Origin: Candidatus Bathyarchaeia archaeon
Lineage (GTDB): Archaea > Thermoproteota > Bathyarchaeia > Bathyarchaeales > Bathycorpusculaceae
Direction of reading: 5' to 3'
Length of the DNA stretch: 10,455 nucleotides
Assembly (NCBI GenBank): GCA_050012755.1
Contig: JBEKGO010000060.1
Span: 1 to 10,455, forward strand
Under the pieces are notes generated by a model. That model made no database searches. It saw nothing but the letters and a program-made list of their open reading frames with translations, and was not told the DNA's origin. This document shows positions 5,590-10,455 of this stretch, piece after piece. Each line of letters starts with the position of its first letter. Within the stretch, counting starts at the first letter, position 1. The translations under genes and the position numbers were made by a program.

Positions 5590-5877
5590 CTACGCTTTTG
5601 TAAGCATTATTTCAATTGTTGAAACCATACGTGCTCTGGTTTCGCCTTCTCTTGGCGGCATCTCCTCTGTTCCTATCACGATCTTGTTTACTTTCAGGTC
5701 TTTTATGAAGCGATTTCTCGTTATTTCAGCTGCGTCAACAGCTGTGGCTATTGCTTGTCCTCTCGCCTTCAAGGTTATTTCTTTAGCATCGCTCGCCGAC
5801 AGCTCTGTAATAATCGCTAGAACATAGTCCATTGGCATTTTCTTTCCAACGAAAACAATTTTTGATTTTTCCGACAT
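5590..5877 (-). CDS. albA: DNA/RNA-binding chromatin protein Alba
   Basis: 'VFVGKK..MDYVLA', 'LKARGQAIATAVDAAE', 'IGTE' and 'VSTIEI' motifs. GGTGA SD upstream. Confidence 0.95.
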   Translation of the reverse strand: MSEKSKIVFVGKKMPMDYVLAIITELSASDAKEITLKARGQAIATAVDAAEITRNRFIKDLKVNKIVIGTEEMPPREGETRARMVSTIEIMLTKA

Positions 5878-6040: not shown

Positions 6041-6077
6041 GAACACACACACAAGATTAAAATTTAGTCCAACCAAC
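6041..6077 (+). repeat. Copy 3 of the dispersed repeat: GAACACACACACAAGATTAAAATTTAGTCCAACCAAC
   Basis: 6046-6077 aligns with 2668-2699 with two single-base indels and one substitution. Confidence 0.85.
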
Positions 6078-6080
6078 ATA

Positions 6081-6500
6081 AAAATTAGAAAAAGTTAGAC
6101 CTTTTTTGAAAAAGGTTGAATGGTTTAATATTAGGTTTAAAAATTCTAAAAAAAGGCAAAAAATGTTCAGGGCAGAAAAGTGAAGGCTAACAGGGATTAA
6201 GCATTTTCGTTTTTCCAGATTTTTGTTCTTTGTAGTTCAGGTTGCTTTTCTGCTCAAAAGCTTGATTTCTTTGCAGGTTGAGTAAACAGAAGCACACTGA
6301 AGTAAAAGGAAGCAAACACAAGCACAAGAATGTAAACCTGCGCAACCCAAAGCAAACACTTTCATTTTTTGTTCACTATGGTTAGCTCAGGGCTTGATTT
6401 CTCTGCAGGCTGCGGCTCCACGCGGTTTTATACGTCTCCCTGCGGCTCTATGCGTCTCTGCCCGTCTCGTTGCGTCTCCCTGCGTCCCAAAATGTCCTCC
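6081..6500. repeat. Composite phased-repeat locus A: A-rich array (6081-6200), 60-bp box (6221-6280), 8x10-bp GYAMA array (6281-6360), shortened box (6367-6412), 9x10-bp CGTCTC array (6411-6500)
   Basis: Motifs line up in consecutive 10-nt columns. Homologous to 9919-10204. Confidence 0.9.
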
Positions 6501-7108: not shown

Positions 7109-7132
7109 TGGACCACTGCAGGATTTGAACCC
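7109..7132 (-). other. Degenerate tRNA 3'-end-like sequence (possible att remnant)
   Basis: Minus strand reads GGGTTCAAATCCTGCAGTGGTCCA, i.e. a T-loop plus an acceptor-like end. No 5' tRNA half found. Confidence 0.35.
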
Positions 7133-7343
7133 ATGCCAAATGGAGATATCACCCGCTTACCCTTTTTTTATTTTCTTCACCCCAGACTTTCCATCATTTT
7201 GGGCTTCCATGCCTAGTGGTGGATTTTCGTAGCTGCGTCAGCAGTACCTTCGCTATTATCCTTTCTGGGATAATCCGTTGTGGTTTCTCTTTTCATGCAA
7301 CACCAAATAACTCGGGGGAGGCGAGAAATCTTGGGATTTCTCG

Positions 7344-8408
7344 TCACTTACGGTGAAGCTCAAGGGAGTGGTTGAGAATTCTGTCGTTTATCATTTCCCA
7401 AAGTTCAATTTCCTCTATTGGCCTAAATCCAGAACAGAAGCGTTCCTTGGCAATCTCATAAATAGCCTGATTAATGGGCATCGGGACTCCTGATCTATGG
7501 GCCAAGCCTAGCATATAGCCGTTCAACGACTCTAGTTCCGTATTTGTCTTCCCACAAAAAACGTCCTGTGTCATGCTAGTCGGTCCTACTCTGTTAACAA
7601 TAAAGTCATGAAGTGGATTTGTCGGTGATTCTGGATTGTTAACAGCAGTTCGTATTTCGGTCCACGAAGGCATGACACCAAGACGATGCTCCTTAAAGCC
7701 TGCTGCTTGGAGGACGTTAACCCCCTCCTCCAGTAACCTAGTTGTGATGTGCACGAGAATCTTTTCAGATTCAATGGAGCGTTTTCGAAATCCAACTAAC
7801 GCCATTTCCGCGTTTATGAGGTTGATTGCCAGTTTGCAGTGAACTGCATCTTGCAGACGGTCCGTCACGACGCAGGTTAATCCTGGATTTAGGACGTTTG
7901 CAACACTTTGAAGTTCAAGTTGTAGCTCCCTCTTCAGAGCCCCAATAATTACGTGCCCACGTTTTACGTAAGAGACTTTTGACGCGCCCTCGCGCCATGC
8001 ATTATAGCATATCACCCCAAATGTGGGTTTAGAAAAATATTTTGGCAGTATCCGCTGGTTTTCGACTCCATTTTGGAGACCCGCAATAATTGGCTGTCGA
8101 TTCCCAAGCTGTCGCCTGAGTGCCTGTGCTGTTTGGTCCAAGTCATAGTTTTTAACGGTGATTATTATAATGTCAGGAGACGGTATTTCCTCCAAGGATT
8201 CAATTAGGTTCACTCGTATTGAAGGGACAGTCTCTTTGTCTGTTTGGTGAAGCTGTATGCCGTGGCTTCTAATTTCTGGAACACTGTTGCCTCTAGCGAG
8301 CAAGAACAAATCTCTATTTTGAGGGGAAATCCAGCCTGTTAAGCTCAAACCTATTGCGCCTGCCCCAACGACAACAATGACAGGTGTATTTTCCAAAGCG
8401 TCCCGCAC
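7344..8408 (-). CDS. panE: Ketopantoate reductase (PanE/ApbA) family oxidoreductase
   Basis: VVGAGAIG Rossmann motif, 'TVKNYD', 'LQNGV', catalytic-type 'KLAINLIN', and 'SMTQD...TELESLNG'. Substrate cannot be established from sequence. Confidence 0.88.
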   Translation of the reverse strand: MRDALENTPVIVVVGAGAIGLSLTGWISPQNRDLFLLARGNSVPEIRSHGIQLHQTDKETVPSIRVNLIESLEEIPSPDIIIITVKNYDLDQTAQALRRQLGNRQPIIAGLQNGVENQRILPKYFSKPTFGVICYNAWREGASKVSYVKRGHVIIGALKRELQLELQSVANVLNPGLTCVVTDRLQDAVHCKLAINLINAEMALVGFRKRSIESEKILVHITTRLLEEGVNVLQAAGFKEHRLGVMPSWTEIRTAVNNPESPTNPLHDFIVNRVGPTSMTQDVFCGKTNTELESLNGYMLGLAHRSGVPMPINQAIYEIAKERFCSGFRPIEEIELWEMINDRILNHSLELHRK

Positions 8409-8496
8409 CTCGCCATTCTAAATCTCTTGGCAACGTAAATCCTTAGGCGAACGCGCCACATATAGCTTACCGGGAATCACGGCAAACAATGTTGAA

Positions 8497-8517
8497 GTGG
8501 ACCTGGGGGATTTGAGC
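8497..8517 (-). other. Second degenerate tRNA 3'-end-like sequence
   Basis: Minus strand reads GCTCAAATCCCCCAGGTCCAC. Shares TGGACC-N4-6-GGATTTGA (+ strand) with 7109-7128. Confidence 0.35.
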
Positions 8518-8983: not shown

Positions 8984-9427
8984 TTAATTGGTTTCGATTT
9001 TTTTGAGAAATTCTTTCACTGATACAATCTGCGTTTTTTTGTAGCAGCCTACTTTGAGAAGATGCTTGTCGCCACTAACAATGTAGTCTGCTCCAGCCGC
9101 CAAGGCGCATTCCACAAATTTATTATCTGCCGAATGTTCCCGCACAACATCAAGTTTTTTTGTAACTTTAACGAATTTTGCAATTCTCAATACTGTTTGA
9201 ATCAAAGTTTCCCTGCTTAATTCAACAGCTTGGTAAATGCTTCTAATTTTAGGATAAGCCAAAACTCGGCTAATCTCGGCAACAATTTCTTCGGAGACAA
9301 AAATAACTACTCGGTTTTGTTCAGCTGCTTTTATGATTTCTGCAGGTTTGCCGCCCCAAAGAAAAGCTGAAATCCAAACGTTTGTGTCAAGAACTACTTT
9401 CGGCTCTTGCTTCGTCAACGAGGGCAC
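8984..9427 (-). CDS. PIN-domain toxin (VapC-like, PIN_3 type)
   Basis: 'VVLDTNVWISA', 'EI.RVL', 'DNKFVECAL...ADYIVSGDKHLL'. The start (GTG 9427 or TTG 9418) overlaps the antitoxin 3' end. Confidence 0.93.
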   Translation of the reverse strand: MPSLTKQEPKVVLDTNVWISAFLWGGKPAEIIKAAEQNRVVIFVSEEIVAEISRVLAYPKIRSIYQAVELSRETLIQTVLRIAKFVKVTKKLDVVREHSADNKFVECALAAGADYIVSGDKHLLKVGCYKKTQIVSVKEFLKKIETN

Positions 9428-9656
9428 TTATGTCTTCCTCCGACAGACCCATCTGTCTAACTTTTGCCCACACCGGCTTCATAGTTTCTTCAAAGGATTT
9501 ATCAATTATTTTTTTAAGAACAATCATGTCGTCAATAGCTATGGCCAAAATCTTCTCGCCCTTCCTAAGGTTGGCGGCCTTTCGCACATTCGCGGGGATA
9601 ACCACTTGCCCTTTAGACGAAACTTTGGTTGTAGACGCCTCCACCATTATCATCAT
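9387..9656 (-). CDS. AbrB/MazE/SpoVT-family antitoxin
   Basis: 'TKVSSKGQVVIPANVRKAANLRKGEKI' swapped-hairpin signature, directly upstream of the PIN gene. Start could be ATG 9656, 9653 or 9647. Confidence 0.92.
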   Translation of the reverse strand: MMIMVEASTTKVSSKGQVVIPANVRKAANLRKGEKILAIAIDDMIVLKKIIDKSFEETMKPVWAKVRQMGLSEEDISALVDEARAESSS

Positions 9657-9663
9657 CAACAAG

Positions 9664-9918: not shown

Positions 9919-10455
9919 TTTTGTTCAGGTTGTTTTAGATTGCTTTTTTGATTTAAGATTTGAATTGGTTGCAGGCTGCGTACAAAAAAGCAAATAAAAG
10001 CAAAAGCACGCAAACAGAAGCAAAAGCAAGCAAACCTACGCAAACCTAAGCAAAACCAACTACACTTTTTGTTCTTTAGAGTTCAAGTTGCTTTTCTGCT
10101 TAAAAGCTTGATTTCCTTGCAGGCTGCGGCTCCACGCGTCTCTGTGCGTCTCCTCCCGTCTCTACCCGTCTCGCTGCGTCTCCCTGCGTCCCGAAACGTC
10201 CCTATAGAATAAGTTATTGACGGGTTTTTGTGCAGGTTTTGTTCTTTGTGTTTTGGGTTGCTTTTTTGGTTTAGGGTTTGCAATGTTTGCAGGTTGCGTG
10301 TTTATTTGTGTGAATTTGAGCTGAAATGTGTCCAATTGTGTTAAAATGTGTTTATATGTGTAATTCTGTGTGGAAATGCGCGAAAACGGGGCGATTATTA
10401 TAAGGTTTCTGCACAAGACTTTGTCCTCTGTACATTGGGTTGCTTTTTTGGTTCA
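9919..10455. repeat. Composite phased-repeat locus B: 60-bp boxes at 9919, 10067, 10237 and 10419 (truncated), separated by 10-bp-period arrays of GCAAA, CGTCTC and TGTGT
   Basis: Boxes align without gaps to TTTTGTTC-N13-TTGCTTTTYTG-N9-TTG-N6-TTGCAGGYTG. Array motifs fall at exact 10-nt intervals. Confidence 0.93.

Follow-up and report, generated by a model that had tools for sequence, protein, structure and literature searches.

The window analysed here is the whole of a 10,455-bp contig (C60; JBEKGO010000060.1) from the genome of a Candidatus Bathyarchaeia archaeon, assembled as 65 contigs that total 2.41 Mb at 41.6% G+C. At two places it carries copies of a module in which a conserved 60-nt sequence, the box, is followed directly by a cassette of tandem decamers, each made of a word of 4–6 nt and then a variable, mostly A-rich linker, and these copies belong to a family of interspersed non-coding DNA elements, modular in build and specific to one genus. 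An earlier note on this DNA, which had only its letters to go by, had described the modules at the right-hand end of the contig, placing boxes at 9919–9978, 10067–10126, 10237–10296 and from 10419 up to the cut made by the contig end, with GCAAA motifs at 9990...10050 (and GTACA at 9980), CGTC ending at 10140...10200 (and CGGC ending at 10130) and TGTG-like 4-mers ending at 10300...10380; on direct reading every one of these positions is exact. A second cluster, of two modules at 6221–6492, was absent from that list. The full set, all on the plus strand, reads as follows:

6060..6219, plus strand: eroded A-rich module remnant without a detectable box (no nhmmer match), recognised by reading the sequence; its last ~55 nt ('tgttcagggcagaaaagtgaaggctaac...cattttcgtttttccaga') resemble the tail after an AGTC-class cassette at C10:42730
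6221..6280, plus strand: complete box (nhmmer E=3.3e-10; sequence-only covariance model E=9.2e-18)
6281..6360, plus strand: cassette of 8 decamers with AGCA/AGTA words (GCAAA-type class)
6364..6412, plus strand: box that has lost ~14 nt internally, including its T-run core, as judged by eye against the full box at C43:51 (weak nhmmer matches at 6371–6412 and 6383–6412)
6413..6492, plus strand: cassette of 8 decamers with CGTCTC/CGGCTC words (Tandem Repeats Finder period 10/20 at 6429–6486)
9919..9978, plus strand: Box 1 (sequence, nhmmer and covariance model)
9979..10058, plus strand: Cassette 1, 8 decamers, first CGTACA and then AGCAAA/CGCAAA words
10067..10126, plus strand: Box 2, whose 5' half is a variant regularly found after GCAAA-class cassettes
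10127..10206, plus strand: Cassette 2, 8 decamers with CGTCTC/CGGCTC/CGTCCC words
10207..10236, plus strand: inter-module linker ('..GTTATTGACGG-TTTTTGTGCAGG') that recurs ahead of many boxes
10237..10296, plus strand: Box 3 (sequence, nhmmer and covariance model)
10297..10386, plus strand: Cassette 3, 9 decamers with a TGTG word, copies of which occur at 88–97% identity on C33, C46, C5, C4 and C27
10387..10418, plus strand: tail specific to the TGTG class, also present after TGTG cassettes on C5, C33 and C46
10419..10455, plus strand: Box 4, with the variant 5' half CTTTGTCCTCTGTACATTGGG, truncated by the contig end

When an nhmmer profile built from three window boxes and iterated twice was run on the whole genome, it found 120 boxes at E<1e-3 (114 at E<1e-5) on ~35 contigs. 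They fall into 73 intergenic clusters (41 singletons, 22 pairs, 6 triples, 3 of four and 1 of five) that occupy ~5% of all intergenic regions in the genome and are uniform in strand without exception (0/73 mixed). In the 70 nt after a box, self-identity is 0.61 at lag 10, 0.59 at lag 20 and 0.56 at lag 30, as against ~0.26–0.34 at other lags and 0.26 +/- 0.06 for 2000 random 70-mers; lag-10 identity exceeds 0.5 in 105/120 modules vs 7/2000 controls, and the best lag is 10, 20 or 30 in 115/120. Three to ten decamers follow the box in 118 modules, the remaining two having scored 2 in-phase units, and at least four units are in phase in 113; arrays of 4, 5, 6, 7 and 8 units were seen 18, 18, 28, 14 and 25 times. 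The genome-wide register puts the array start at the first base 3' of the box, which extends to the whole family what had been said of the arrays in the window.

The association also holds when approached from the periodicity. Periodic stretches across the genome number 82 at lag 10 and 22 at lag 12, compared with 0, 1, 4, 1 and 2 at lags 7, 8, 9, 11 and 13, and 73 of the 82 lag-10 stretches adjoin a detected box, while 8 of the other 9 adjoin a degenerate box in the correct orientation. Since 81 of the 82 thus lie at a box or its remnant, box and decamer array are obligate partners, and together they explain nearly all of the 10-nt periodicity of the genome. The arrays are non-coding, as had been argued from their period of 10: open reading frames (ORFs) across them have no Pfam match, and 70 of the 73 clusters lack a spanning ORF of at least 100 aa, the ORFs of 112–135 aa that span the other three being probably spurious. 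Nor are the arrays an artefact of assembly, because the same architecture occurs in dozens of independently assembled genomes, several of them in 1–10 contigs. About ten contig ends fall in or beside modules, from which it follows that these repeats break the assembly; contigs C55 and C61, for example, both open with the same 120 nt as at Box 4 and then diverge into different cassettes.

Constraint on the decamers and mosaicism of the box

Counted over 720 units, G occupies phase 2 of the decamer in 88% and is scarce at other phases; T is the base at phase 3 in 67%, phase 4 carries C in 47% and A in 29%, and the share of A at phases 7–10 is 46–66%. G/C is concentrated at phases 1, 2 and 4, and in most classes a half that contains G/C alternates with one rich in A/T. 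The word classes that recur in this genome include AGTCnAAAAA, CGTCAC, CGTCTC, AGCAAA, AGTACA, TGTAAG, TGTGT and AGGTY/CGGTY, together with CATCCC, TGACA, TGACT and CGTT..TTTG, and other species add AATCG, TATCC, TTCTCG, TAATCTAGTT, GGCAA, GCACA, TGGTTAGAAT, GTAAAT and others. More than 20 word classes recur across species, with linkers that differ. Certain classes have conserved tails or linkers, but there is no common 3' module, tails being class-specific or absent.

Both the phase and the words are under purifying selection. Spacing was taken as the distance between successive copies of the commonest phase 2–4 triplet of a cassette, which could be scored in 109/120 modules (the other 11 had no triplet in at least 3/6 units, or their sequence ran off the contig), and it is 10 in 441 cases and 20 in 29, against 9 in only 8 and 11 in 2, so that the earlier proposal of a 10-nt phase kept by selection is borne out. 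Conserved bases sit at fixed phases, and changes between homologous copies avoid phases 2 and 4: for 180 cassettes from this genome and other species, grouped by ungapped similarity, the minimum changes per column at phases 1–10 are 58, 17, 43, 23, 67, 66, 77, 72, 65 and 49 (chi-square p=1e-11), a count in which the groups are non-independent lineages and in which unit insertions or deletions could inflate the effect at the looser thresholds. The phase bias has p=5e-6 for groups no more than 15% apart, and for groups no more than 10% apart, a distance at which misalignment by a whole unit is unlikely, the changes are 13, 1, 7, 1, 14, 8, 12, 10, 7 and 8 (p=0.008). Within the genome the median identity of a module to its nearest neighbour is 0.81, with 0.90 attained by only 10/120 modules, so most copies are old, and they are nevertheless in phase. 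Other species have near-perfect tandem arrays (L099, L131, L149, L069 and L088; lag-10 identity 0.85–0.90), among them tgtgtcggga x6, agtcggaaaa x4–5 and cgtcactaca x4, and units of exactly 10 nt are therefore still being duplicated.

Two of the less likely readings turn on this composition. In one, which we consider improbable, phased A/T and G/C steps would be intrinsic shape signals, and the words would have no other meaning; the signals would bend the DNA, or place tetramers or hypernucleosomes of archaeal histones next to the box. A period of 10 matches wrapped DNA, the division of the decamer into a G/C-bearing part (phases 1, 2 and 4) and an A-rich part (phases 7–10) is of the expected kind, and the genome has two histone-fold genes (C4:13815–14000 and C42:3841–4020, both outside the window), one of which lies ~2 kb from a cluster of four modules. 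Archaeal histones favour repeats of alternating A/T and G/C motifs, and high-affinity positioning sequences of the Clone20 type share with the cassettes both this alternation and a ~10 bp period (PMC10151503). However, Clone20-type signals are artificial or statistical; they form no dispersed family and have neither a conserved box nor class-specific words. Classes such as CGTCTCCCTG, moreover, have no A/T half at all. Selection acts on two specific phases and on class-specific words, beyond composition; array lengths show no preference for multiples of 30 bp; and the element is absent from many species of the genus. Shape would thus leave the class-specific words, the box and the patchy distribution unexplained.

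The second reading, drawn by analogy and very improbable in our view, takes the module as single-stranded DNA, with the G-T-N of phases 2–4 forming rows of primase initiation triplets at the spacing of one primer and the T/G-rich box serving for loading. The prevalence of G and T at phases 2 and 3 would suit it, as would the strand asymmetry described below and the exact integer period, both of which fit a single-strand process. Primases of the archaeo-eukaryotic kind may recognise specific triplets and synthesise primers of fixed length, and that of pRN1 needs GTG. The N. equitans primase uses triplets with a central T and stops at ~9 nt (PMC10250227), and the pRN1 enzyme has a unit length of 8 nt (PMC8076596). 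The unit here is 10 nt rather than 8–9, no primase-polymerase gene is linked to the modules, and their orientation along contigs is only weakly coherent; moreover, the persistence of at least 20 classes that differ in the third base of the triplet would have no explanation.

The box is T/G-rich, with the consensus TTGTTCTTTGTGTTTTGGGTTGCTTTTTTGATTTAGGGCTTGAATTGTTTGCAGGTTG, of which the core GGTTGCTTTTTTG and the end TTGCAGG are near-invariant; mean pairwise identity is 69% among boxes and 42% among cassettes. Its two halves have different affiliations. Across 97 modules of 7 classes, columns –29..–1 covary with the class of the downstream cassette (z 15.7 at –1, 12.3 at –2 and 9.0 at –4/–5), whereas columns –75..–30 do not (|z|<=2). 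In 44 tandem pairs, on the other hand, many columns in –75..–30 covary with the class of the upstream cassette (z 2–4.5) and columns –29..–1 mostly do not, –16 and –11 being exceptions. Five TGTG modules are accordingly alike from the start of their own box to the middle of the next one, after which different cassettes follow. The box is therefore a mosaic, its 3' half inherited with the downstream cassette and its 5' half with the upstream neighbour, and since the halves covary with different neighbours, the invariant core is the junction between them. This fits recombination, homologous or site-specific, inside the core.

The core, read as TTGCTTTTTTG(A), also shows complementarity to the units that make up the two most frequent cassette classes (AAAAGCAA and TCAAAAAAG). 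Within the window, 9930–9950 pairs in this way with 9983–10003 of module 1 (21 nt, 81%), and similar complementarity is seen at 10088–10098, 10246–10268 and 10440–10450. As folding z-scores are no higher than those of shuffles, it may be an effect of composition or a trace of how the arrays arose.

Distribution, turnover and genomic setting

A sequence-only covariance model of the box, applied at E<=0.001, has matches in 42/61 genomes of the genus. At least 75 per genome were counted in G000, G015 and G043, and 74 in G055 (89 when this genome was searched alone), whereas G003, which is a single contig and falls within the module-rich group, has one. In a sample of the order, matches were confined to 3/121 genomes, all of the same genus, and there was no box match in 16 genomes of other genera of the family or in 95 genomes of 11 other families; a divergent variant of the box in one species likewise precedes a decamer array. 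So patchy a distribution shows that the element is dispensable. When one genome from each prokaryote species was scanned for the exact pattern, at least 113 loci came up. Among the 80 matches for which titles were listed, 56 are from Bathyarchaeota/Bathyarchaeia, 47 of these with lag-10 identity of at least 0.5, and the 24 others comprise one typical module and 22 scorable loci at 0.17–0.45. The typical module (L051; box and AGTCAAAAAA array, lag-10 identity 0.70) lies on a 10,089-bp contig (DATIXS010000167.1) of a bin labelled Candidatus Acidoferrum, Acidobacteria, and this is probably a mis-binned Bathyarchaeia contig. Searches beyond chromosomes were negative: blastn gave no match in 72,556 plasmid records, and of the 17 loci with the exact box pattern in viral contigs 15 are one unrelated phage sequence and none is periodic.

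Modules persist at orthologous sites across species. At one convergent intergenic site a module is present in three species, with boxes 82–85% identical and flanking genes 76–83% identical, and the cassettes (58–64% identical) are of one class in two of them and of another class in the third; two further species have a degenerate box without an array, and in three more the site is empty (28–50 nt). No target duplication was seen at this site, filled or empty, or in an alignment of same-class modules, the species being only ~76–83% identical and the junctions imprecise. An alignment of 7 modules of one class shows similarity that begins ~12 nt upstream of the box, stops with the last decamer and has no inverted ends; neither window cluster has terminal inverted repeats, the only complementarity there being of A-run with T-run, between the box core and a GCAAA cassette.

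Such states at one site are what would be expected of purely selfish, non-autonomous mobile DNA, in which the box would be recognised by an enzyme acting in trans and the arrays would be by-products of copying, through slippage or repeated use of a template. Also consistent with this are a copy number that ranges from 0 to at least 75 within one genus, the occurrence of copies 91–97% identical although relatives are ~70–83% identical, the contig breaks at modules, the clustering in variable, toxin-antitoxin-rich regions and the near-perfect arrays of other species; the complementarity of the box core TTGCTTTTTTGA to the two commonest units could even hint at a templated origin. Nevertheless, the modules lack terminal inverted repeats and visible target duplications, and no partner enzyme appeared in the genome: there is no TnpB (0), no reverse transcriptase (0) and a single Y1 transposase, unlinked, on the box-free contig C64. 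The genome also has 10 tyrosine-recombinase matches. Slippage alone predicts uniform decay, but mostly old copies are still in phase and have few changes at phases 2 and 4, and the word classes are conserved across species while the linkers are free. As a complete account of the family we therefore regard pure selfishness as unlikely.

Modules are oriented without regard to the neighbouring genes: a downstream gene shares their strand in 35 cases and lies on the opposite one in 32, the corresponding numbers for the upstream gene being 28 and 40; the 62 clusters with two neighbours lie in 21 divergent, 15 convergent and 26 tandem intervals, for which the genome-wide numbers are 369, 379 and 1270. 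Along contigs there is some order, with neighbouring clusters co-oriented in 27/39 pairs in this genome (hand count), and with the 23 clusters of G055:C4 in 8 orientation runs vs 11.4 expected (also a hand count), ten consecutive clusters over ~290 kb lying on one strand; this is weak evidence for a regional or replication-related orientation. The contig with most clusters is C33, on which an 18-kb stretch (G000:C33:10000–27878; L025) has eight of them in an island rich in genes for PIN, MazF, CcdA-like, MazE/AbrB and small winged-helix regulator proteins. Two clusters are each bracketed by a divergent tRNA pair (C4:10647–11771, Thr/Leu; C14:15825–16873, Phe/Val), and with a third on C34 (tRNA-Ile) the tRNA-adjacent clusters come to 3/73, about the chance expectation.

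These data bear on whether the modules act as RNA. Each could be a small non-coding RNA gene, in which the transcript from upstream would terminate at T-runs in the 5' half of the box and the next would start, at or near the first cassette base, from a non-canonical promoter in the 3' half; the product would be an unstructured, multivalent decoy or sponge of 60–100 nt, presenting 4–10 copies of a word at a fixed 10-nt pitch to a sequence-specific RNA-binding protein or an endoribonuclease. Much in the architecture is congenial to the idea: a layout in which a constant part precedes a variable one, and in which the period is an exact integer, suits a single-strand footprint, each array begins exactly at the end of the box in all classes, composition is strongly strand-asymmetric with G nearly confined to phase 2, tandem modules are always co-oriented, and clusters occur among PIN, MazF and MazE/AbrB genes both in the window and on C33. 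There is, in addition, a T/A-rich 'TTTTTTGATTTA' at –35..–24, where an archaeal TATA box would sit. The absence of structure, for its part, is what a sponge requires, and it is a consistent finding: over the 120 modules the mean folding z-score is +0.19 on the plus strand and +0.29 on the minus strand, no better than shuffles, and six individual folds have z of –1.9 to +0.95.

The RNA reading fares less well with the signals of transcription. A matrix for the TFB-recognition element (BRE) and TATA box, derived from the 35 tRNA promoters of the genome, scores the box negatively on the plus strand, with negative means throughout; a reading of the 3' half of the box as a BRE and TATA element is not borne out by the matrix, and the only recurrent matches of at least 8 bits fall inside A-rich cassettes and look like an effect of composition. 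Archaeal RNA polymerase terminates at oligo-T. There is a T6 run in the box, A-rich cassettes give T5–T7 runs on the other strand, and T-rich classes such as TGACA.. and CGTT..TTTG hold runs of this length themselves and should halt their own transcription. No toxin gene is regularly adjacent to modules, orientation ignores the neighbours, and there is neither a fold above shuffles nor an Rfam match (0 at E<=1 over the whole window, both strands), the last of these in keeping with the earlier failure to recognise a described element. A type III antitoxin RNA in particular was rejected, the downstream gene being co-oriented in only 35/67 cases and belonging to no recurrent family. On balance a role as RNA genes seems unlikely too.

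A proposed nucleation site and phased track, and known systems compared

We tentatively favour, at rather less than even confidence, a recombining interspersed DNA element whose box would nucleate proteins on a helically phased track; the promoter matrix, the T-runs and the indifference of orientation to neighbouring genes are the reasons for which a duplex-DNA function is put ahead of the others. The element would then act as double-stranded DNA, with the box as a common site of recognition and nucleation as well as the place of recombination, and the decamers would present the same few bases, chiefly phase 4 and the G of phase 2, once per helical turn and always on the same side. A DNA-binding protein might load at the box and then bind cooperatively over 40–100 bp, or the DNA might wrap over this length, while the family would spread and turn over as other interspersed repeats do, and be dispensable at the level of the genus. 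The earlier note had already suggested a constant box beside a phased track for an oligomerising binder, and this part of it remains the best reading, supported by the phase, the conserved bases at fixed positions and the start of the arrays; the centromere and origin roles that it had offered alongside did not stand.

There is a good deal that sits poorly with a phased protein track. The cassettes are asymmetric in composition between the strands, which a pure duplex site would not require: of the 180, 102 are A-rich, 41 T-rich and 37 other. Nor do the T-rich classes prove in general to be inverted A-rich ones: their mean best profile match is 0.595 vs 0.573 for a complement-only control, with only TGACT vs AGTCA standing out as an inverted pair (0.68–0.71 vs 0.55). 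The period is exactly 10 and never 11, a demand that duplex DNA, with 10.5 bp per turn, does not make, and an exact period would equally fit a single-strand footprint or an inherited unit length. More than 20 word classes would need either many specific binders or one tolerant binder, and the analysis yielded no binding protein. Beside the modules there is no recurrent gene family (among 128 flanking proteins the largest family has 3 members, which are paralogues on one contig), and the one family tried as a partner, of oligonucleotide-binding (OB)-fold proteins, was rejected, being present in 60/61 genomes of the genus irrespective of module count. Finally, the 19/61 genomes of the genus with no match include some in 1–4 contigs that are 96–99% complete.

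The comparison with known systems leads to the same mixture of likeness and difference. Arrays of short direct repeats in phase with the helix, bound cooperatively by small dimeric proteins, are familiar from centromeres of the parC/ParR type, from omega/ParG operator arrays and from iterons. The spacing of one turn (parC) or two turns (iterons) in such sites would be the point in favour of a plasmid or chromosome centromere, of ParR or SegB type, or of an iteron-type origin. In those systems, however, a single repeat type occupies one locus or a few, with par or rep genes alongside, whereas a common box and many words are found here at 73 loci (120 modules) in a 2.4-Mb genome, with no recurrent par, rep or Orc gene or any other recurrent neighbour, in orientations that ignore the adjoining genes, while several near-complete genomes of the genus have no modules; nor are there plasmid matches, and those in viral contigs are unrelated and non-periodic. 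With 73 loci and no linked genes, the modules cannot in general be centromeres or origins, and we give either role almost no credence. The nearest mechanistic analogy for a loading box with a track is the DnaA-box and DnaA-trio, in which a duplex recognition box stands beside a short-period array and the same protein continues as a filament, but the trio has a 3-nt period, a single locus and a bacterial replication initiator, and no such protein is implied for the modules. Repeated non-coding units or motifs that bind several copies of one protein are known as RNA from ToxI and CsrB; ToxI, however, has 36-nt repeats directly upstream of its toxin gene and CsrB has its motifs in hairpin loops, while the modules have unstructured 10-nt units and no adjacent toxin.

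As repeats, the modules belong to no named family. REP/BIME, ERIC, NIME and MITE-type sequences are likewise small, non-coding, intergenic, high-copy, patchy and mosaic, but they are built on palindromes or inverted repeats, often with a cognate transposase (RAYT or insertion sequence), and the modules have no palindrome. A miniature inverted-repeat transposable element (MITE) was rejected for lack of terminal inverted repeats and of a linked cognate transposase, and a REP/BIME because the box has no dyad and the Y1 transposase gene is not flanked by boxes. Nor is this a CRISPR array, since the units are 10 nt, the boxes are 150–190 nt apart and ~69% identical in pairs, and the intervals are themselves periodic. 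The nearest described kind is the pneumococcal BOX element, a modular interspersed repeat present in the order of 100 copies per ~2 Mb genome. BOX elements (boxA, tandem boxB, boxC) and related streptococcal repeats are similarly interspersed, intergenic and modular, and they share with the present modules a conserved module of ~50–60 bp followed by variable tandem units, permuted composites and clustering, but they differ in having units of ~45 bp, a terminal boxC, terminal inverted repeats and predicted stem-loops (PMC3049150). In a strict sense a BOX-type element was rejected, there being no common 3' module and no stem-loop fold here; the strict 10-nt phase, the at least 20 word classes and the lack of a terminal partner likewise have no counterpart among BOX elements. 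A full-text literature search, which did not reach supplements, found no published description of such an element.

An exact 10-nt phase together with protected bases at fixed phases is not known from any described repeat family, and these two signs of constraint make the modules a natural experiment on helical or fixed-footprint phasing. It is more doubtful whether they amount to a new sequence-coded nucleoprotein system, in which the box would load a protein and the at least 20 classes of track would be 'addresses', or else to a library of multivalent decoy RNAs. Were the first of these true, ~100 intergenic sites per genome would be organised by a selected word code that recombination in the box reshuffles, and the classes might bind different paralogous partners or pair loci of the same class; were the second, unstructured multivalent decoys would be deployed one class for each sequence-specific RNA-binding protein or toxin RNase. 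If a binder exists, the word classes provide a built-in specificity series, and if the modules are transcribed they represent a new kind of multivalent RNA. Bathyarchaeia are abundant and uncultured in peat and sediments, and their non-coding DNA is almost wholly uncharted. In practical terms the modules interrupt short-read assemblies of these genomes, and they are in any case usable as a lineage marker in checks of binning, as the Acidobacteria-labelled contig illustrates.

Other genes of the window and a related contig

Among the genes of the window are those for Alba, an Lrp/AsnC-type protein and a PIN/MazE-type toxin-antitoxin pair, the last directly adjoining the module cluster at the right-hand end. 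The following were located, together with the sole Y1 transposase gene of the genome:

3014–3655, plus strand: 213-aa protein with a weak Ssb-like OB-fold match
5590–5877, minus strand: Alba gene
7344–8408 (region 7121–8515), minus strand: ApbA/PanE-like gene
8984–9662, minus strand: PIN_3 toxin and MazE/AbrB-type antitoxin
C64:2783–3244, minus strand: IS200-type Y1 transposase, sole copy in the genome, on a contig of 3281 bp

The ApbA/PanE-like gene has copies in four other species at 90–93% protein identity and ~89–91% DNA identity, its relatives coming from Bathyarchaeota/Bathyarchaeia records from peat, bog, palsa and soil. The flanks of the gene are non-syntenic in those species, as are the surroundings of the window generally, and elsewhere, in another region that was compared, the same genomes are only ~68–85% identical. 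The pattern suggests that this one gene was exchanged horizontally in the recent past. For the OB-fold protein of the window, this genome contains four full-length paralogues, and each of the 60 genomes of the genus that possess it has 1–5 copies. One of the paralogues is on C64, where the Y1 transposase gene has a short tandem duplication near its 3' end and where two more ORFs, on a reading by eye only, resemble Ku and a LigD-type polymerase domain.

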